Shown piece by piece: positions 512 to 40,600 of a DNA stretch of 64,000 nt (position 1 is its first letter; each line of letters starts with the position of its first letter). Below the pieces are notes generated by a model. The model was not told the DNA's origin, did not search any database, and saw only the letters and a list, made by a program, of their open reading frames with translations. The translations under genes were made by a program, and so were the position numbers. Origin of the DNA: an uncultured bacterium. Its GTDB lineage: Bacteria > Bacillota_I > Bacilli_A > RFN20 > CAG-826. The stretch is taken from positions 12,457 to 76,456 of the forward strand of contig CASERQ010000004.1 of assembly GCA_949290395.1 (NCBI GenBank), in the 5' to 3' direction.

Positions 512-3280
512 ATGCGCTTATTTAAAACTTTAGCAAAGAAATTATTCAGAGATATCTTTAAAAATTTTAAGCAATTTATCTCAATTGTTTTTATTATCGG
601 AATCTCTGTAACTTTATATGTAGGGCTTGATGCTAATGCTCAGTCTTTTGAAAATAGAGTTAATAATGTTTATCAAAAGACAAATGTGGCTGATGAATGG
701 ATTACAATAAGTCCTAATTTTGTCAATGAAGAAGAAATGGCAAGTGATCTTGCTTTTATAGAAGATTTAGCAGGAGATGATGAAGGAGGAATGGTTGAAA
801 CTAGGTTTTATCTTCCAACATCGTTAGCCTCTTTTTCTGTAAATGCTCTTGTAATGGACCATTTACCTAAAATAAATACTCCTTATGATATTGAAATGGT
901 TTATTACACCGATAAAGATTTCTTTTTTGTAGATAAAGCTTTAATTGAAAGATATGAAGAAGATACCAATACTGTTTTTAATGTTGGTGACACTTTACCT
1001 TTAAATATTGAATCTTCATTTTTAAAACAAGCAATAAATCAAATCACATCAGATCCAGAAAGTTTAACTATTATATTAGATAGCTTTATTGATGATTCAT
1101 CTCTTGATGAGACATTTAAAACACTTTTAAAAACTATATCATCTCAGTTTTCTAGTGAAATTGGTTCGATAATCAATAACATTGTTGGCGTTTTATTTTC
1201 TGAGAATCAAATTCAACTTAACTTAAAAGTTAATGGAATTATGTCTCATCCAGAAAATATTGATAATGGTGAGTTTTCAAATTCAAATTTCCTTATTTCA
1301 ACTAGGTTACTTTTAGGAAGCGTTGTTGAATATATTGGAAATAAATTTTCTTCTTCGATTTTAATAAGTGAAATCGAATCTTATATCGAAACAAGCGGAA
1401 ATACTTTAATAAATAATGTATTAACTAGAGTATTAGAGTATTTAAATGAAGGCAATAATGCATTAGCATTAGATGCTGCAATTATGGTAGTTGTTAATAC
1501 CCTTCAAAATGATATTAACGATGGAAATAATGCTGAACTTGAAGCATTTATTTCTAATCTTTATAACCAAATCGTCGTAAAACTCGCCCCAAATGTTGAT
1601 GTTGAGACTTTTGAGGTTGATGTTGAAAATCACTTTGCAAATAAAACTAATAACAACTTATTAGCGGCTTTAAAGCGTTCAAGCTATCCTTCAATGTTAC
1701 AAGTTGAAAATGATATCAATCAAGCAAAGCAACTTGCTCTTGTTTTTCCAATCATATTTTTTGTAGTCGCTTTATTGATTGTTTTAACTACAATATCTTC
1801 TTTAATCTTAAAAGACAGAGTACAAATTGGAACCTTTAAAGCGCTTGGAATTAGAAAGAGAAATATTGCTTTTTATTATCTTGCCGAGATGAATATTGTT
1901 TCTTTACTTGGCGTAATAATTGGGTTTATTGTTGGACCTTTATTATTGCCTTTCATCATGAATATAAAATATAACATTTTATATTCGTTACCACAAATGG
2001 AATATTATTTCCCATGGTTAACTGCTTTTATAGTATTTATTATTGTTGCTGTTTTGGTTAGCGGACTTACCTTAATTCTTTTATATAGTGAATTAAAAGA
2101 AATGCCAACTGAAACAATGAGAACAAAAGCTCCTAAGATTCAAAAATTTAAGGCACATAAACATATCATTAAAAACACATCATTTATGATGGCCATTCGT
2201 AATATTAAAGTTCACTTTGCTAAATCATTAATGGTTGTAATTGGTGTTATGGGTTGCACTGGATTATTAATCTGTGGAATGGGGATTGATGATACTTTAA
2301 ATTATGGTAAAAACTGTGATTTAGAAAATTTCTACGATTCAGACATTACAATAGGCTTAAATGGTTCTATGGATAGAGGTCTACTTACTGAAGAACTTTT
2401 AAGATATGAAGAAGTTGAAAAAGTAGAAGAATACAGTGTTATCGCAGGTAATATAAATGCTACAGATGCAACAATAACCACGCAAATCTACGGTGTAAAT
2501 CAAAATTCTGACTTTTTTAAATTTGATAAAGATACTATTGATGGAGTTTGGGAACCAAGCGGAATTGCTTTGACTGAATCAGTGGCTGAAGATTTAGGCG
2601 TACAAGTTGGAGATGAAGTTAATTTTGATATTAATGGAACAGTTTATACAAAAGAAGTTGTTTATATTTTCTATGCTTTCTTTGTAAATGGGGCATATCT
2701 TTATACCGACACTGAACCAGAACTTTTTAAGACTTCAACGAATTGTTGGGTTGATCTTAAAGAAGGAGTTAACGGCAATGCTTTTAAAGAAAAAGTTTTA
2801 GCAGAAAATACTCATGTTTCATCATGCGCAACAAAAGAAGATATGAGAGTAACTATTGATGGCTACATGTCTTCAATTGGAATGATGACAAATACTGTTA
2901 AAGTTTTTGCAATTTTACTCGCCATTGTTGTTTTAATTAATCTTTCCATATTAAATACCAATGAAAGAATGCGTGAACTTGCAACTTTAAAAGTTTTAGG
3001 TTTCTCTAGAACTAAAATTGTTATGTCTTTAACTATTGAAATGCTTATTTTAACTATAGTTGGTGGTTTACTCGGCTTAGCTATTGGTCTACCTTTAGAA
3101 TATTTAGTTTTAAGTGTTAATGAAACGCCTCTAGTCTCATGGTTATATCTAGTTTATCCAGAAACATATGTAATTTCTTTCTTTATAAGCGTCTTAACTG
3201 CTTCAGTTGTTAACTTATTTATGTATTTTAAAGTCGATAAGATTTCAATGAGCGAATCATTAAAGAGCGTCGACGAATAA
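512..3280 (+). CDS. FtsX/MacB-family ABC permease with very large extracytoplasmic domain (922 aa)
   Basis: N-terminal TM helix, about 380 aa hydrophilic domain, TM cluster, second large loop, C-terminal FtsX-like 3-TM bundle. Start is 1 nt after the upstream ATPase stop. Confidence 0.8.
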   Translation: MRLFKTLAKKLFRDIFKNFKQFISIVFIIGISVTLYVGLDANAQSFENRVNNVYQKTNVADEWITISPNFVNEEEMASDLAFIEDLAGDDEGGMVETRFYLPTSLASFSVNALVMDHLPKINTPYDIEMVYYTDKDFFFVDKALIERYEEDTNTVFNVGDTLPLNIESSFLKQAINQITSDPESLTIILDSFIDDSSLDETFKTLLKTISSQFSSEIGSIINNIVGVLFSENQIQLNLKVNGIMSHPENIDNGEFSNSNFLISTRLLLGSVVEYIGNKFSSSILISEIESYIETSGNTLINNVLTRVLEYLNEGNNALALDAAIMVVVNTLQNDINDGNNAELEAFISNLYNQIVVKLAPNVDVETFEVDVENHFANKTNNNLLAALKRSSYPSMLQVENDINQAKQLALVFPIIFFVVALLIVLTTISSLILKDRVQIGTFKALGIRKRNIAFYYLAEMNIVSLLGVIIGFIVGPLLLPFIMNIKYNILYSLPQMEYYFPWLTAFIVFIIVAVLVSGLTLILLYSELKEMPTETMRTKAPKIQKFKAHKHIIKNTSFMMAIRNIKVHFAKSLMVVIGVMGCTGLLICGMGIDDTLNYGKNCDLENFYDSDITIGLNGSMDRGLLTEELLRYEEVEKVEEYSVIAGNINATDATITTQIYGVNQNSDFFKFDKDTIDGVWEPSGIALTESVAEDLGVQVGDEVNFDINGTVYTKEVVYIFYAFFVNGAYLYTDTEPELFKTSTNCWVDLKEGVNGNAFKEKVLAENTHVSSCATKEDMRVTIDGYMSSIGMMTNTVKVFAILLAIVVLINLSILNTNERMRELATLKVLGFSRTKIVMSLTIEMLILTIVGGLLGLAIGLPLEYLVLSVNETPLVSWLYLVYPETYVISFFISVLTASVVNLFMYFKVDKISMSESLKSVDE

Positions 3281-3382
3281 TTTTAAATATTGGTCATAAT
3301 AAAAAATTTTTAAGAATTTTTATAATTATCTACTTTTTATATAGTAGAGGTCATATGCATCAAGCATAAGATTTTTTCTATC

Positions 3383-3720
3383 GCCAAAGGTTAAAGGCGT
3401 TAAAACTTGCTTATTAGTGAAAACCTAGTAAGTTATTGACAACAGGCGAGGCACTTAAAAAGTTAATAACCGAAAGGCTATAAACTAATAAGTTGTTAGG
3501 AGTTATGGAAAATGTCATATGTCTGATTCTGATTTTATTGATCATTCGAGAGATAAAGAAAGATGATGGCAGACATGACCATCATCACAACTAACAACCA
3601 CTTTATAAAGTGCTCTCGCCTCTTGTTTCAAGATTACGAGGTAAGGACATATTAGTAAAAGTTGAACGGAAAGGCAATAGAGGGGCAAAAAATTTCAGTC
3701 TGTCACTTGAACAATTAGAT
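3383..3720. ncRNA. GC-enriched structured element of unknown class between convergent genes; contains a candidate 29-aa hydrophobic ORF (3505..3594)
   Basis: Long-range complement caggcgaggcactt (3441-3455) / aagtgctctcgcctcttg (3609-3626). Nested complements gtcatatgtctg / cagacatgac and gatgatgg / ccatcatc. GC is well above the flanks. Confidence 0.3.
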
Positions 3721-3837
3721 ATACTGGAAATAATTTTATATTTTTATTGAAAATATACATATAAACAAATAACTTTCCAAAATTTGTGTAAAAAAAGATG
3801 CGGCAGGGCAATCTACCGCATCGTGAAGGGGTTATAT

Positions 3838-3868
3838 CCTCGGAGTACCGAGGTTTTTTTCTTTTTTG
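3838..3868 (+). terminator. Rho-independent terminator (cctcggagtaccgagg + T-run)
   Basis: Perfect 6-bp GC-rich stem with 4-nt loop followed by tttttttctttttt. It lies in a convergent intergenic region and implies a short plus-strand transcript ending here. Confidence 0.5.
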
Positions 3869-4045
3869 TGGGTATTAAAGGGGGGAGTATACCCACAACT
3901 ATATAAACAAGCGAACTATATTCTTGTTTATAAGCAAGTTAAGGCAATTACGGTGGAATTATATCTCTCAATAATTCCTAACAGATATCTTTTATACTAT
4001 TAATACAGGCTAGTTGAAAGTTTGTTGGAAAAATTTTAAATATTT

Positions 4046-4996
4046 TTAAAGATTTTTTTCTAGCGTTTCAATTTCGCCTTCTTCATTGAAAGTATAAGTA
4101 CAAACAATAGGCTTATCATCGACATTTTCTTCATTGTATGAACATTCATAATTCATAGAACCTTTATCGAAAACTTTGAAGATAAGTTTATTATTTAGTC
4201 CTTTTCGAGAAAGAATAAATTGATTATAGCCTTCTTTATTTAAAAAGTTACAATTAAAAATATTCTCTTGTTGATATTTAAATGAAAAATCAATTGATGA
4301 ATCTTTGTTTTCGGTTACGTTAATTGCGTAATCTTTATAAGGTATGGTTGTTGGATTTAATGAAATATTTAATAAACAGGAACGATCAACAACTTTTCCG
4401 CCAATATTAATTTCCATAATTGGCTCAGAAGCATTGAAAACGCTGCTCTTTGAGAAAAGATAAGCCTTAAATGAGTTAAGATCCTTCTTTTTAAATAAAA
4501 TATCGTAGTCTTTCTTTAAGAAATTATCTTTAATGGTTTCTTTAATATTGAATTTTTCATTATTTAATTCTTTTTCAGTATTTTCGAAAGAGTAATTAAT
4601 TCTATCTTTGTTAGTATAAGTGTAATTTAAAAAAGCAATGGTTGGTAAAGCGTGATCATTAATATAATTATCATCTAAGTTTATAGAATCCATAGTGTTA
4701 TTTTCGATAGCAAGTCGAGCTAAACCCAAAGATCCAACAATATGAGATGCGAAATTATAATTTTCGATGCTATCATAAACGCTTTCGATGTAAGTTAATG
4801 GTAATGCAAGTGTTAAACCTAAAACCGATGCAGCTACAGCGATATTAACCGCACCTAAAACAAATCCACCCTTATTAATGATTCTAGGTTTCTTACTGAC
4901 GAATGAAACTTCGCTCATTTTAAGGATGTCATTTGAGGTAATGTCGATTTGCTCGGTTTCAAATGCTTCTTTTATTTCATTTTCTAAGTTTTTCAT
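4046..4996 (-). CDS. Putative anti-sigma factor (single-pass membrane protein with extracytoplasmic domain)
   Basis: Overlaps the 3' end of the ECF sigma gene by 20 nt. Has a cytoplasmic N-terminal segment of about 45 aa, one TM helix (GGFVLGAVNIAVAASVLGLTLALPL) and a large C-terminal domain. No family motif recognised. Confidence 0.55.
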   Translation of the reverse strand: MKNLENEIKEAFETEQIDITSNDILKMSEVSFVSKKPRIINKGGFVLGAVNIAVAASVLGLTLALPLTYIESVYDSIENYNFASHIVGSLGLARLAIENNTMDSINLDDNYINDHALPTIAFLNYTYTNKDRINYSFENTEKELNNEKFNIKETIKDNFLKKDYDILFKKKDLNSFKAYLFSKSSVFNASEPIMEINIGGKVVDRSCLLNISLNPTTIPYKDYAINVTENKDSSIDFSFKYQQENIFNCNFLNKEGYNQFILSRKGLNNKLIFKVFDKGSMNYECSYNEENVDDKPIVCTYTFNEEGEIETLEKNL

Positions 4997-5513
4997 TTGT
5001 GAGAGCCTCTCTAACTTTTTTTAACCCCTCATTGTATTGCCATCTTACTGTGTTCTCGTTTCTTCCAAGGGTTTCAGCGATTTCCTTATATTCTAATCCG
5101 TTAATTAATCTGAGAATAATTACGTTAAAGACATCAGGAGTTAAAACCTCTTTCATAACGCGAATTATTTCACTGTGATCAACATAATCTTCTTCCTCAA
5201 TAGAAGCATTCTCTAATGGAAGTTCTGGATCTTCAACATATCTTTTATTCTTTTCGATATAGTTTAAAGAAAGATTACGTGAAGTAGTGTAAAGATAGCC
5301 AAGGATTGATCTATCTGGAGTCATGTCTCCTATATTCTTAATAAATTTAATATAAGTGTCGCTAAGAATATCTTCTGTAGCCTCCTTAGATTTTAAGTAA
5401 GAATATATGTTCGCAAAAATTTTACCTTTAGTGTCGCTATAGATTTCATTAAAGGCAGTTTTATCGCCTGCGATAAATCTTTGACATAACTTGTAAAGCT
5501 CAATATCCTTCAT
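4977..5513 (-). CDS. ECF-type RNA polymerase sigma-70 factor
   Basis: Region-2-like N-terminus and a C-terminal region-4 HTH (YKEIAETLGRNENTVRWQYNEGLKKVRE). 178 aa. Translationally coupled to the downstream membrane protein. Confidence 0.75.
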   Translation of the reverse strand: MKDIELYKLCQRFIAGDKTAFNEIYSDTKGKIFANIYSYLKSKEATEDILSDTYIKFIKNIGDMTPDRSILGYLYTTSRNLSLNYIEKNKRYVEDPELPLENASIEEEDYVDHSEIIRVMKEVLTPDVFNVIILRLINGLEYKEIAETLGRNENTVRWQYNEGLKKVREALTNEKLRK

Positions 5514-12221: not shown

Positions 12222-12859
12222 AACTTTTAATCTTTGATATGGATGGCACTCTTGTTGATACAGATGAAGTGCTATATCAAACATGGAAAGAATTATTTAT
12301 TAGATACAAACCAAAAGATTATAAAATTGATCGAGAATTTATAAGAGGATTTTCTGGACCACCAATTGAAGAATCAATTCATAGAGCTTTTCCAGAATTT
12401 GATCCTAAATTTATTAAAGAAAAATATACTGAAGCAACAAGAAAATATTACACTGATGAATTTTTAAGAATATTTCCTTCTTCAAAAGAAGTATTAGCGA
12501 AGCTCAAAGAAGAAGGCTATGTCTTAACAATTGGAACATCAAAAAATCGTAAAATGACTGAATATTGTTTAAAAAAGTTTGGTTTTTATGATTATTTTGA
12601 TTCAATGATTACTTCAACTGACCCTTACGCTCATAAACCAGATCCTGCAATTATTAATGCGCTAATAGAACGTTATAAGGTTAGCGAAAGTGAAACGCTT
12701 ATGATTGGTGATACATCTTTTGATGCATTAGCCGCAAGGAATGCTCACGTTAAATCAGTTCTTGTTAGGCTCTGTCCAAGAATCTATGAAAAAGATAAAT
12801 TACCTGATTATTTTGTAGATTCTTATGAAGAACTTTATAAATTGATCAAAACTTTATAA
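12215..12859 (+). CDS. HAD-superfamily hydrolase (PpaX-like pyrophosphatase/phosphatase)
   Basis: Motif I LIFDMDGTLVDT, motif III K, motif IV GDTSFD. Position directly after lgt mirrors the Bacillus hprK-lgt-yvoD-ppaX neighbourhood. Confidence 0.7.
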   Translation: MVKLLIFDMDGTLVDTDEVLYQTWKELFIRYKPKDYKIDREFIRGFSGPPIEESIHRAFPEFDPKFIKEKYTEATRKYYTDEFLRIFPSSKEVLAKLKEEGYVLTIGTSKNRKMTEYCLKKFGFYDYFDSMITSTDPYAHKPDPAIINALIERYKVSESETLMIGDTSFDALAARNAHVKSVLVRLCPRIYEKDKLPDYFVDSYEELYKLIKTL

Positions 12860-12883
12860 AAAAATTTAAGAATTTTATGAATT

Positions 12884-12914
12884 ACCTCCTTTGTATTAGT
12901 AAAGGAGGTTTTTT
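12884..12914 (+). terminator. Terminator/attenuator hairpin whose 3' arm contains the SD of the next gene
   Basis: 9-bp stem acctccttt (12884-12892) / aaaggaggt (12901-12909), 8-nt loop, six Ts. ATG of the following ABC gene is at 12916. Confidence 0.6.
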
Positions 12915-12915
12915 A

Positions 12916-14943
12916 ATGTTAGAAGTTAAAGGCATTTCTAAGTCTTTTAAGATAGATAACGAAAGAGAAAATGTAGTTTTAAATAACATTAACTTTTCTT
13001 TACCTGACAAAGGATTTTATTTTGTTATTGGAAAAAGTGGCTCAGGAAAATCAACTTTATTAAATATTCTTATGGGACTTATGAAACCAGATGAAGGTGA
13101 AGTTTTATATAAAAATAAAGATATAACAAAATTAAATTTAGAAGAGTTAAGCAACTTTTTAAAAGACGATATTGGAATTATTTTTCAATCATATAATTTG
13201 TTTGAAGATTTAACAGTTAAAGAAAATCTAGCAATAACAAGATCAATAAAAGGTATAGAAGGTTTAGAAAAAGAATCAACTTTATTATATCGTTATGGAT
13301 TAAGTGATAAACTTGAACAAAAAGTTTCTCTTTTAAGTGGTGGCGAAAAGCAAAGACTTGCTCTTGTTAGAAGTTTGCTGTCTAGCCCAAAAATCTTATT
13401 TTGCGATGAACCAACTGGTGCTTTAGATTCTTATAACAGCACTCTTTTGATGGACGAACTTAGAATTTTAAGTAGGGAAATTTTAGTTGTTTGTGTAAGT
13501 CACAATTTAGAGTTATTTAAAGAATATAATGATGGTTACATTCTTTTAGAAGATGGAAATATTAAGGAAAAGTGTCTTGATAAAAAGGTAAGTTCAATAA
13601 AAAAAGAAAGTGAAGATTTAGAAAAAGAAGTAAAAGGAGATAAAAAATATACCAACATTATTTCAAGAAAAAACATAAAGAAAAATACTAAATTTAATGT
13701 AATTAATTTGATTTCTGCAGGGTTTTCGATATTAATCATGGTAATTTCACTATTCTTTAATAGCGGGATCAAAAATGCTAAAACTACTTTCTTAAATAGT
13801 TATGGAGACTTTAATGTCTTTAGAGTTTCTAAAGTTAAGGAAGAAGAAATTGAAGATTCATTAATTAACTTAGTTAAGTCTGAAAAGCCAACTTATAGTG
13901 AAGTTCAAACCTTAGTTTATGATATAAAAGATTGTTTAATTTTTGATGATTATTCTTACTTTTTTTCGGGAGAAAAGAAAATAAGAGTGGATGGAAAAAG
14001 TTATGAAAATTTTACTTTAAAACCCTATTTTATAAAAACTCATGAAGCAAAAGACATCATTGTAAATGAGAATTTTGCACTTAAATATAAAGAAGTTTTC
14101 AATAAAAAATTGAATGTCGGAGATGAGATTTCTTTAGAAATTAATCAGAAATATGTCTATTACAATTCGACAAAACAAGAAAATATTGATGAAAATTTTA
14201 ATGTTGAGCTTACTTTCAATGTTAAAGAAATTCGCAAGGAGTTTTCTTATTTAAATTCGGCGACTTTATATTATTCACCAATTTACATTGAAGCAATTTT
14301 AAATAGTGAAACAGCAAGAAAAACAACTGAAATTGAAAATAAAGAAGTGTCGTTTTTAGATCTTTTAAACAATGCTTCATCAAGCGATCAAATTACAAAT
14401 TATTCTTATGATGTTATATCTTTAAATGATGAATCTTATTTAAAAATTAACGAGCTCATTGATAAGGAAAATAGTGGAAATTTAGAGATAACTAACGACT
14501 CAAAAATCGTTGTAGATTCATTCATCACACTTAGCGATAGTGTTTTTCTAGGAGTTAATATTTTCATATTTATTGCAGTTATTACATCGCTCTTTGTTTC
14601 AGGATTTTTAAGTTATTCTTCAAGTTTGAGAAATAGGAAAGAAAGTGCGATTTTATCAATTTTGGGCGCAAAACCTAAAGATATTATAAAAATTTATATA
14701 AAAGAAGAGATGAGTTACACACTAATTGGACTAATATTAGGTGTGATTTTATCAATACTTTTATCATTGATTTTGAACCATTATCTTAGTTCGTTTTTCA
14801 TTACATCGACTTTAATTAATATCAACTATTTAACTTTAATGGTCATATTTATTTTGCTTCTTATTCTTAATTATTCGGTTGATTTTTTGACATTAAAATT
14901 TCAAAAAAGTAAAAAGGTTTATGAGGAGTTAAAAGAAGCGTGA
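12916..14943 (+). CDS. Fused ABC ATPase-FtsX permease (MacB-like)
   Basis: N-terminal ABC ATPase ([26 protein letters not shown]), then TM, large loop, FtsX-like C-terminus. Start at MLEVKG with aaaggagg SD (ORF track start 12877 lacks an SD). Confidence 0.8.
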   Translation: MLEVKGISKSFKIDNERENVVLNNINFSLPDKGFYFVIGKSGSGKSTLLNILMGLMKPDEGEVLYKNKDITKLNLEELSNFLKDDIGIIFQSYNLFEDLTVKENLAITRSIKGIEGLEKESTLLYRYGLSDKLEQKVSLLSGGEKQRLALVRSLLSSPKILFCDEPTGALDSYNSTLLMDELRILSREILVVCVSHNLELFKEYNDGYILLEDGNIKEKCLDKKVSSIKKESEDLEKEVKGDKKYTNIISRKNIKKNTKFNVINLISAGFSILIMVISLFFNSGIKNAKTTFLNSYGDFNVFRVSKVKEEEIEDSLINLVKSEKPTYSEVQTLVYDIKDCLIFDDYSYFFSGEKKIRVDGKSYENFTLKPYFIKTHEAKDIIVNENFALKYKEVFNKKLNVGDEISLEINQKYVYYNSTKQENIDENFNVELTFNVKEIRKEFSYLNSATLYYSPIYIEAILNSETARKTTEIENKEVSFLDLLNNASSSDQITNYSYDVISLNDESYLKINELIDKENSGNLEITNDSKIVVDSFITLSDSVFLGVNIFIFIAVITSLFVSGFLSYSSSLRNRKESAILSILGAKPKDIIKIYIKEEMSYTLIGLILGVILSILLSLILNHYLSSFFITSTLININYLTLMVIFILLLILNYSVDFLTLKFQKSKKVYEELKEA

Positions 14944-30708: not shown

Positions 30709-30797
30709 TGGTGCCCGGGACCGGAATCGAACCGGTACGGTATTGCTACCACAGGATTTTAAGTCCTGCGCGTCTACCTATTCCGCCACCTGGGCAC
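30709..30797 (-). tRNA. tRNA-Leu (anticodon TAA), class II, CCA encoded
   Basis: Reverse complement gtgcccaggtggcggaataggtagacgcgcaggacttaaaatcctg...ggttcgattccggtcccgggcacca. Long variable arm. Confidence 0.85.
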
Positions 30798-30802
30798 GAT
30801 AG

Positions 30803-30878
30803 TGGTGATCCACTGGAGATTCGAACTCCAGACCCCTTGATTAAAAGTCAAGTGCTCTACCGACTGAGCTAGTGGATC
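30803..30878 (-). tRNA. tRNA-Lys (anticodon TTT), CCA encoded
   Basis: Reverse complement gatccactagctcagtcggtagagcacttgacttttaatcaagg...ttcgaatctccagtggatcacca. Confidence 0.85.
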
Positions 30879-30887
30879 ATATGTTAA

Positions 30888-30963
30888 TGGCTGGGGTGGC
30901 TGGACTCGAACCAGCGAAATGACAGAGTCAAAGTCTGTTGCCTTACCTCTTGGCTACACCCCA
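30888..30963 (-). tRNA. tRNA-Gln (anticodon TTG), CCA encoded
   Basis: Reverse complement tggggtgtagccaagaggtaaggcaacagactttgactctgtc...ggttcgagtccagccaccccagcca. Confidence 0.85.
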
Positions 30964-30971
30964 AGACCTTT

Positions 30972-31055
30972 TGGTGGGAGGGGGCAGATTCGAACTGCCG
31001 AACCCGAAGGAATTGATTTACAGTCAACCGCGTTTAGCCACTTCGCTACCCTCCC
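30972..31055 (-). tRNA. tRNA-Tyr (anticodon GTA), class II, CCA encoded
   Basis: Reverse complement gggagggtagcgaagtggctaaacgcggttgactgtaaatcaa...ttcgaatctgccccctcccacca. Confidence 0.85.
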
Positions 31056-31075
31056 GGCTATATATTTCACGTTAA

Positions 31076-31151
31076 TGGTGGATGTTACAGGGCTTGAACC
31101 TATGACCTCCGCCGTGTAAAGGCGATGCTCTCCCAGCTGAGCTAAACATCC
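31076..31151 (-). tRNA. tRNA-Val (anticodon TAC), CCA encoded
   Basis: Reverse complement ggatgtttagctcagctgggagagcatcgcctttacacggcgg...ggttcaagccctgtaacatccacca. Confidence 0.85.
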
Positions 31152-37878: not shown

Positions 37879-37963
37879 GCGCGAGTGGCGGAACTGGTAG
37901 ACGCGTACGTTTGAGGGGCGTATAGGTATTCCTGTGTGAGTTCGATTCTCATCCCGCGCACCA
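37879..37963 (+). tRNA. tRNA-Leu (anticodon GAG), class II, CCA encoded
   Basis: gcgcgag-tg-gcggaactggtagacgc...anticodon loop ttGAGgg...gagttcgattctcatcccgcgcacca. One A/C mismatch in the acceptor stem. Confidence 0.75.
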
Positions 37964-39893: not shown

Positions 39894-40019
39894 AAGTATA
39901 TATTTTATCTACCTTTTATTTATTAAATTTATCAAATAGTACGATATTTATCAATAAAATTACATACTATATAATTTTTATTTTCTAGCATTTCACTTAA
40001 TAAAATTTACACTTATAAT

Positions 40020-40600
40020 GTTCATGTAACCTGATGAAGTTGGTCTTACAGACCGTCAGGATTCTTAGAATGTGAGTGGTTTAATAAGGATACTTGTTAA
40101 ATGACGAATATCTTATATAGAGATATATAAGGAAGGCTATTAAATTAACCTTATTCTAAGAAGTGCTTTTATTAAATTTTAAAAGTTAAAGCAACGAGTG
40201 ATCCGGATCTATAAGTGACTAAAAGCTAGCTGGTCCGCCATACTGCTAGTAGTGTGAGAGACTACCAGGTAAGAGGCAAACTCAATAAGGATCTCTGAGG
40301 TGACGTTTAAGCAATTAAACTATAAGGATTGCAAAGGTACGAGTAGCTAAATATAGACTCAGCTTGGCGAATGAATGGTTATCTTTTTAGGAAAGTAATA
40401 CCGACGTTTAGTGAAAGTTACTAGGTTTATCTAGTTTAATCTTTAAGTCTTCGATAGAAGATGGGGTTAGTAGTGTATAAGTCGCTCTTATACGCTTGGG
40501 CTAACTTCGATTAATGGCTGAAGAAACAGAGTTTAATAAAAGTAAGGCGAAGGCCTACGCTTTAAAAATATTTACCCATCAATAAATGGGTAAATATTTT
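40020..40600 (+). ncRNA. Candidate large structured RNA of unknown class (about 575 nt)
   Basis: Strong GC enrichment against AT-rich flanks; no ORF over 40 codons. Putative promoter (tttcac...17 nt...tataat at 40013-40018). Strong terminator aaaaatatttacccatcaataaatgggtaaatattttttt at 40563-40600. Confidence 0.4.

Follow-up and report, generated by a model that had tools for sequence, protein, structure and literature searches.

We analysed a stretch of 64,000 nt from an uncultured bacterium of the CAG-826 lineage (contig CASERQ010000004.1, positions 12,457 to 76,456; hereafter the window) and followed up a structured element at window positions 3383-3720 that contains a 29-codon open reading frame (ORF). 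A preliminary description of the element had proposed it as a possible type I toxin-antitoxin or small RNA (sRNA) locus. Two convergent genes flank the 766-bp gap that holds the element, one encoding a 922-amino-acid FtsX-type ABC permease (512-3280, plus strand) and the other a protein of 316 amino acids (4046-4996, minus strand). The latter gene overlaps an ECF sigma-factor gene (4977-5513, minus strand) by 20 nt and therefore probably encodes the cognate anti-sigma factor. The label 'anti-sigma' had already been given to this neighbour; the overlap is its sole basis, and a Pfam search with the protein returned no match.

The element was found in one species. We compared eight haplotypes of that species, carried by contigs with the same or near-identical flanking proteins (window/L003, L001/L002, L009/L010, L014, L015, L017, L018 and L019), with six sister-species loci of the same gene order (L004, L005, L006, L011, L012 and L013, the last from a human gut metagenome assembly). 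In the sister loci the anti-sigma protein is 40-42% identical and UvrA about 90% identical. The element was present in all eight haplotypes, while the insert was absent at the same site in all six sister loci, where the gap measures 263-340 bp. The sister-species alignment skips from window position 3287 to 3816, and the element is therefore the core of an insert of about 500 bp (about 3288-3790) that separates the permease stop codon from a neighbouring, conserved sRNA candidate. Conservation in relatives, by which the preliminary description had proposed to judge the locus, thus holds within the species, where the ORF is intact in every haplotype, but not in the sister species. The element had also been called GC-rich, which is true relative to its surroundings (30-40% GC compared with 19-28% in the immediate flanks) but not otherwise.

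The core of the insert is a folded domain closed by a long-range helix, P1 (3438-3456/3608-3627), which has 17-18 pairs, a bulged T3614 and a single C3443/C3622 mismatch, and encloses 151 nt. A helix of 13-14 bp around about 150 nt had been noted before; the helix is present and is longer. The best long-range duplex of the 516-nt insert reached -25.5 kcal/mol, compared with a mean of -15.6 (s.d. 1.8) in 100 dinucleotide shuffles, none of which attained this value. The domain itself (3437-3630, 194 nt) folds with a minimum free energy (MFE) of -59.3 kcal/mol (z = -6.56), the span 3383-3720 with z = -3.71 and a hypothetical full transcript (3330-3865) with z = -5.6. The pair probability of P1 was about 1.0 in the 516-nt context, and likewise in five of the six distinct haplotype folds. 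For the helix as for the domain fold, these values lie far outside what chance would give. The helices of the P1 domain are almost wholly Watson-Crick, with almost no G.U pairs. The inverted-repeat arms extend for about 60 nt in decayed form, and nhmmer detected similarity of the insert to its own reverse complement (E = 0.019).

Within P1, the 8-bp helix P3 (pair probability 0.96-0.99) takes in the first two bases of the Shine-Dalgarno (SD) motif, and its 3' strand overlaps the stop codon. The remaining GAG of the SD was paired with a probability of 0.35-0.59 and the AUG with 0.84-0.88. The ribosome-binding site, called occluded in the preliminary description, is thus only partly so. A pairing of the start region with codons 23-26 (3514-3525/3570-3579), put forward earlier with codons 22-26, exists as a minor alternative with a probability of about 0.12, compared with 0.83 for the hairpin P4 (3562-3586). 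P4 is followed by TTTCTTTATC on the minus strand, which makes it terminator-like there; on the plus strand it has no U-tract.

The 29-codon ORF is present as previously described, from ATG 3505 to TAA 3592-3594, as is the AGGAG motif (3498-3502), separated from the ATG by TT. SD, ATG and TAA are invariant across the eight haplotypes. In the encoded peptide, 12 of the 15 residues from N3 to I17 are isoleucine, valine, leucine or cysteine, and they are followed by a charged tail (REIKKDDGRHDHHHN) whose end, DDGRHDHHH(N/T/H), is rich in His and Asp. This composition is unusual: the ORF is the sole case of an uninterrupted hydrophobic run of at least 11 residues among 270 ATG-initiated ORFs of 20-60 amino acids in the 64-kb window.

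We then compared variation within the species with that at fourfold degenerate sites of the flanking genes, 52 of 433 of which are variable (12%). Polymorphism was reduced in the putative 5' untranslated region (5'UTR) plus ORF (7/136 compared with 12%; binomial p = 0.006, uncorrected and for a sub-region picked after seeing the data; table 1). In codons 4-28 we found three synonymous changes (at 3529, 3552 and 3558) and no non-synonymous ones, the non-synonymous variants of the ORF being N3S, N29T and N29H. All nine indel events of the insert fall outside the ORF, and of the 12 positions that directly follow the stop codon (3595-3606) five are variable or affected by an indel. The remaining four ORFs of at least 30 amino acids in the span (3414-3545 and 3542-3688 on the minus strand, 3563-3655 and 3610-3750 on the plus strand) are each hit by indels and, judging from the indel positions, would be frameshifted in some haplotypes.

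Searches for relatives of the element yielded nothing. Rfam gave no match to 3281-3796 at gathering thresholds or at E <= 10, and the earlier alternative of a structured RNA, taken as a conserved family, finds no support, the element being confined to one species. Searches of Pfam and NCBIfam by hmmscan with the 29-amino-acid peptide and a 33-amino-acid version returned no toxin family at E <= 10, only noise (Syndecan, Insulin_TMD); the other ORFs in the gap had no Pfam match. A phmmer search of the 33-amino-acid ORF against 1.84 billion protein representatives gave no match at E <= 0.001, a result of low power given the short query. The 516-nt insert had no match in plasmids and phages by distant-mode blastn, and three pattern scans of viral contigs were empty, one with a 25-mer of the hairpin, one with both P1 arms as a pattern and one with codons 1-14 back-translated in degenerate form. 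A 19-mer of the P1 3' arm matched two of 185,579 GTDB species genomes, a metagenome-assembled genome of Paludibacteraceae and Lachnospiraceae G11; neither match extends past the 19-mer, and both are therefore chance. No second copy was found in the window or the 19 fetched loci by blastn, tblastn or nhmmer. With no relatives in any search, the element is an orphan. Descent from a neighbouring protein gene, as its decayed pseudogene, was also rejected: compared by blastx with all stop-free segments of at least 60 amino acids from the window and loci, the insert gave only self-matches, apart from one marginal match (E = 0.87) that reflects the promoter paralogy described below.

Table 1. Features of the insert in window coordinates, with the fraction of sites that vary among the eight haplotypes.
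Feature	Position	Strand	Variable sites	Remarks
Whole insert	3288-3790		45/503 (8.9%)	
Left end of insert	3282-3350	plus		paralogue of window 12834-12905; blastn 81% over 52 nt, E = 4e-6
Outer imperfect 5' rod arm	3399-3436	plus		pairs with 3628-3666 in the MFE structure; inverted repeat; site of the 16-nt indel 3423-3438
P1 5' arm	3438-3456	plus		long-range helix
Putative 5'UTR	3459-3504		1/46 (2.2%)	
5'UTR plus ORF	3459-3594		7/136 (5.1%)	
P2 hairpin	3461-3486	plus		in putative 5'UTR; in the least variable part of the insert
P3 5' strand, GUUGUUAG	3492-3499	plus		pairs with CUAACAAC at 3591-3598
AGGAG, SD-like motif	3498-3502	plus		only TT before ATG 3505 (2 nt)
29-codon ORF, MENVICLILILLIIREIKKDDGRHDHHHN	3505-3594	plus	6/90 (6.7%)	ATG 3505, TAA 3592-3594
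Hypothetical antisense RNA, about 190 nt	3555-3745	minus		would overlap codons 18-29 and ORF 3' flank; ends predicted from motif positions
P4 hairpin, GATGATGG...CCATCATC	3562-3586			in codons 20-28; invariant in all haplotypes
P1 3' arm	3608-3627	plus		long-range helix
Tail region	3627-3720		15/94 (16%)	
Outer 3' rod arm and tail	3628-3720	plus		more polymorphic than any other part of the insert; indels at 3687 and 3704
Promoter-like site, TTGGAA-17-TATATT	3752-3780	minus		hexamers invariant in 8 haplotypes; spacer varies at 3759, 3769 and 3771
Right boundary of insert	3797-3860			two convergent terminators, conserved in sister species

The left end of the insert is paralogous to window positions 12834-12905 (local alignment score 31, compared with 16.4±2.0 in shuffles), so that the insert is chimeric. 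The source region comprises the last 25 nt or so of a HAD-hydrolase gene and the promoter, 5'UTR and anti-SD hairpin of an ABC gene that starts at 12917. In the insert, this end carries a perfect TATAAT (3321-3326), a small hairpin (CTACT/AGTAG, 3330-3334/3343-3347) and an SD-like AGAGG (3346-3350), and plausibly represents a captured promoter, judging by these motifs. A mini-ORF of four codons (MHQA; 3355-3369, plus strand) has its ATG 4 nt after the AGAGG, a better spacing than that of the 29-codon ORF. At the source locus itself, the 5'UTR (12834-12916) of the gene at 12917, which encodes a fused ABC ATPase-permease, forms a hairpin in which the SD of the gene (AAAGGAGGT) is paired with an anti-SD (ACCTCCTTT). 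A sister species has an equivalent hairpin of other sequence (ACTCCTTT...AAAGGAGT; L011, 2760-2830), which suggests a conserved translation-masking device in front of this ABC gene.

At the right boundary, the hairpin 3797-3822 is the minus-strand terminator of the neighbouring sRNA candidate, and the hairpin 3838-3853, followed by a T-run, is a plus-strand terminator. We found no plus-strand terminator between the permease stop codon (3280) and the hairpin 3838-3853, the insert included. Transcripts of the permease operon must therefore read through the insert, and they, together with any transcript of the element, end at 3838-3853. At the same junction (equivalent to window 3281-3796), locus L006 carries an unrelated extra sequence of about 80 nt (about 5117-5280) with its own terminator-like hairpin and a CTCCCCCC motif. 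This different extra sequence marks the permease/sRNA junction as an indel hot spot.

On the minus strand, the promoter-like site at 3752-3780 and the invariant terminator-like hairpin 3586-3562 would delimit the hypothetical antisense RNA of table 1, the fold of which is unremarkable (z = -1.2). Another promoter candidate, TTGCTT-16-TAAGTT at the P1 5' edge (3407-3434), was rejected; it matches at 6 of 12 positions and is deleted or mutated in L001/L002/L018 and L019.

We tentatively read the element as a type I toxin-antitoxin-like cassette, orphan and specific to this species, a reading that we consider possible rather than probable. In this cassette, a plus-strand transcript, whose source would be either read-through of the ABC permease operon or the captured promoter copy (about 3321), would carry the 29-codon gene for a small hydrophobic and presumptively toxic peptide with a charged, His-rich tail. 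P1 would enclose the whole translation unit, and P3 would join the region of the stop codon to the 5' edge of the SD. Because P3 reaches the SD edge and the AUG is for the most part paired, poor translation of the full-length RNA is to be expected. The convergent partner, a minus-strand RNA starting near 3745 and ending at the hairpin 3586-3562, would match the 3' third of the ORF and the P1 3' arm with full complementarity. Through this complementarity it could repress translation or trigger cleavage by RNase III, like 3'-overlapping antitoxins such as SR4. By analogy, the element might thus hypothetically work like a 3'-overlapping Firmicute type I system with fold-back control in the style of hok and fst.

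The comparison with known systems supports a generic rather than a familial resemblance. Published heuristics for type I toxins look for an ORF of under 60-70 amino acids with at least 10 hydrophobic residues in 15 and a polar or charged C-terminus (PMC2887945). By these size, hydrophobicity and C-terminus measures of Fozo et al., the present peptide qualifies, with 29 residues, 12 of 15 hydrophobic and a charged C-terminus. It also occupies a free-standing intergenic site that varies between relatives (766 bp compared with 263-340 bp in the six sister loci). Tandem or multiple copies, which are frequent but not obligatory in type I systems, were not found in the window or the 19 fetched loci.

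A close parallel is zor-orz of E. coli O157:H7: ZorO is likewise a hydrophobic peptide of 29 amino acids, was found by the same heuristics, and its locus occupies a gap of 1.2 kb that measures 0.3 kb where the locus is missing (PMC2887945), much as the gap here is 766 bp with the insert and 263-340 bp without. The zor-orz locus differs in being a tandem duplicate whose sRNA and toxicity were shown by experiment, whereas the present locus is single-copy in the sequence examined and known from its sequence, and we found no sequence similarity between the two ORFs. The zor-orz antitoxin, moreover, overlaps the 5'UTR and not the 3' end. The geometry of the hypothetical 3745-3555 RNA is that of bsrG/SR4, txpA/RatA and yonT/SR6 of the Firmicute Bacillus subtilis, in which a convergent antisense RNA overlaps the 3' end of the toxin mRNA. 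Antisense RNAs of the bsrG/SR4 type affect decay of the toxin mRNA and the structure of its ribosome-binding site (PMC3834814, PMC5848175). Toxins of this type have 38-59 amino acids with full-length transmembrane segments, lie in prophage-like regions and have mapped RNAs, whereas the antisense RNA here is predicted from motifs.

The preliminary description had seen an Fst/Ldr-like profile in the peptide, and this assignment fails: the element does not belong to the Fst/Ldr superfamily. Like Fst of the par locus of pAD1 (Fst/RNA II), the peptide is short and combines hydrophobic residues in its N-terminal part with charges in its C-terminal tail, and P3 and P1 may compare with helices within the par mRNA that sequester the SD region and form an end-to-end 'upstream helix' (PMC7472228). 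In members of the superfamily, a conserved Trp (Val in the prototype) separates the transmembrane helix from the charged C-terminus and the transmembrane segment has a P/D/S/T-XXX-G(C) motif, and par has convergent promoters, a shared bidirectional terminator and the repeats DRa/DRb as a second complementarity at the start region (PMC7472228). The Fst helix of about 24 residues contrasts with a run of 11 here, and the profile match, the Trp, the PXXXG-type motif and conserved DRa/DRb are all absent from the present element. Par-like direct repeats at 3468-3482/3665-3679 (13 of 15 matching) were rejected, being at chance level and destroyed in L009/L010, L014 and L017. The fold-back helix around a toxin-type ORF is also reminiscent of hok/sok, in which long-range pairing of the 5' and 3' ends keeps the full-length toxin mRNA compact and translationally inert. 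In hok, this pairing uses the true ends of the transcript, and activation occurs by 3' trimming. P1, by contrast, is internal to any transcript predicted here (3330-3865).

Several observations weigh against the cassette. At the level of the peptide, the SD-ATG spacing of 2 nt is abnormal for efficient initiation, and an out-of-frame ATG at 3512, which opens a four-codon ORF (MSYV; 3512-3526, plus strand) overlapping the start of the 29-codon ORF, is better spaced at 9 nt after the AGGAG. The hydrophobic run falls short of a canonical membrane-spanning helix. The peptide has no Trp at the boundary of its hydrophobic segment and tail (I14-R15) or anywhere else, and no P/D/S/T-XXX-G motif; residues 1-21 contain neither Pro nor Gly, the only Gly being G22 in the charged tail. 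At the level of the transcripts, the hairpin 3562-3586 is not a bidirectional terminator, having its U-tract on the minus strand only. The prediction of an antisense RNA from 3745 to 3555 draws on weak signals, since promoter-like sites are barely enriched over shuffles (7 compared with 4.1±1.8 expected) and one spurious terminator-like match would be expected in about one case of three. On its minus strand the domain folds nearly as well as on the plus strand (z = -5.81 compared with -6.56), so that folding energy can neither assign the strand nor tell an RNA from a DNA-level palindrome. Neither DNA nor peptide searches turned up a homologue or paralogue, and the polymorphism statistics rest on very few sites in a sub-region chosen with the data in view.

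The clamp itself gives a further argument of this kind. Each P1 arm has two variable sites in 22, about the neutral rate. Two of the substitutions, C3452T and C3619T (the latter in L017), give G.U pairs on the plus strand, while G3446A gives an A.C mismatch there and would be G.U on the minus strand. In L001/L002/L018, a 16-nt deletion (3423-3438) is combined with the A.C mismatch in P1 and the loss of P3, which in L001/L018 follows from deletion of C3595 and changes at 3598-3601. In this group the probability of P1 falls to 0.22, and the domain folds at -45 instead of -59 kcal/mol. Either the clamp is therefore dispensable or these alleles are decaying. From these very few events, the pattern leans towards constraint on the peptide and the translation-initiation region rather than on the clamp. 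The type I proposal of the preliminary description thus keeps the generic heuristics, the intact ORF and the antisense motifs on its side, with the 2-nt spacing and the weak clamp of L001/L002/L018 on the other.

Nearly as likely as the cassette, and so likewise doubtful, is a neutral relic. By this account the insert is chimeric junk DNA, made of a duplicated promoter/5'UTR fragment and an imperfect inverted duplication and fixed in one species at an indel-prone junction; the fold would be a DNA-level palindrome and the ORF fortuitous. Such an origin would explain why the insert as a whole varies at 8.9% of its sites, near the 12% of fourfold sites, and 3627-3720 at 16%, and why the palindrome folds equally on both strands with almost no G.U pairs, its arms running on as decayed inverted repeats of about 60 nt. 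The loss of much of the structure in one haplotype group, the left end with its dead coding sequence of another gene, the other extra sequence at the same junction in L006 and the lack of relatives anywhere point the same way. A relic fits less well with variation in the 5'UTR plus ORF core below that of fourfold sites (the 7/136 with its uncorrected p-value), or with an ORF that is intact in all haplotypes and has only synonymous changes in its core. The hydrophobic run, a 1-in-270 event among small ORFs, and the G.U compatibility of two of the three P1 substitutions on the plus strand likewise speak against a relic.

A structured non-coding RNA, to which the ORF would be irrelevant, seems rather unlikely. 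It could be a long, structured 3'UTR of the ABC permease operon that stabilises the mRNA or insulates the convergent junction with the neighbouring sRNA, or else an sRNA, either independent or derived from the 3'UTR. Operon transcripts do traverse the element, there being no plus-strand terminator before 3838-3853; the fold is exceptional, its most conserved part is P2 with the 5'UTR, and the G.U-compatible P1 changes are on the plus strand. However, Rfam has no match at E <= 10, and the element is absent from all six sister loci even though these have the same operon and the same sRNA. Conservation of P1 and P3 does not exceed that of neutral sites, one haplotype group has both helices broken, and constraint appears to end with the stop codon of the ORF, a pattern that suits coding better than structure.

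We give still less credence to a young, lineage-restricted gene in one species of a human-gut-associated genus, in which the copy of 12834-12905 and the palindrome would have come together and the 29-codon ORF would now be under purifying selection as a de novo toxin-like micro-protein. On that reading, the whole type I toxin-antitoxin cassette perhaps arose in the same way, again without relatives. It is improbable that the ORF encodes a non-toxic, small membrane-associated peptide, for instance a His-rich metal-binding or transporter-associated micro-protein co-expressed with the ABC permease. The ORF is co-oriented with and directly downstream of the FtsX-type permease with no terminator between them, the ORF-specific conservation signals would fit equally well, and the tail DDGRHDHHH(N/T/H) is indeed His- and Asp-rich; against this, sister species with the same transporter lack the ORF, the SD is poorly spaced, the hydrophobic segment is very short, and no homologue was found among the 1.84 billion protein representatives (33-amino-acid query, low power). 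Least likely of all is a miniature inverted-repeat mobile element (MITE-like) or its remnant: the long terminal-like inverted repeats, their self reverse-complement similarity (nhmmer E = 0.019) and the presence or absence of the insert between close species recall such elements, but the repeats are internal to the insert and do not coincide with its boundaries (about 3288 and 3790), neither palindrome nor insert edges show a target-site duplication, neither the 64-kb window nor any fetched locus has more than one copy, and no match in the phage, plasmid, viral or GTDB scans extends beyond the 19-mer.

If the cassette reading is true, the element would be a type I toxin-antitoxin-like module without a detectable family in an uncultured low-GC gut bacterium. 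It would show the origin and turnover of such modules at the level of species, through a duplicated promoter fragment captured beside a palindrome, and would bear on where type I toxins and orphan micro-proteins originate. A relic, in turn, would serve as a useful negative example, in which a strong fold z-score and a hydrophobic mini-ORF are insufficient to diagnose a toxin-antitoxin locus. The practical importance is limited in either case, because the element is confined to one species and has been seen as sequence alone.

The more solid functional RNA of this intergenic region is the conserved, C-rich sRNA candidate directly to the right of the element. This RNA of about 200 nt (window 3797-4030, minus strand) has equivalents in L004, L005, L006, L011, L012 and L013, with a conserved promoter-like TTTTTCCAACAAA-N15/16-TGTATTAAT, four hairpins and a terminator at 3822-3797. 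Its C-rich loop CUCCCCCCUUU is invariant, and it has a single-stranded ACCCCUUCA. Among eight sequences we found compensatory changes at eight base pairs, and the fold has z = -5.8. Within the species, 2.5% of its sites vary compared with 12% at fourfold sites, and it is far better conserved than the flanking anti-sigma protein (40-42% identical). It matches nothing in Rfam. In sRNAs of the RsaE/RoxS type, C-rich motifs target SD sequences, a logic that the C-rich motifs of the candidate recall.

Elsewhere in the window, a full-length ROOL RNA lies at 40007-40576 on the plus strand (195.5 bits, where the gathering score is 99.1). Five tRNA genes form a cluster at 30712-31151 on the minus strand, and one more tRNA gene lies at 37879-37960 on the plus strand.

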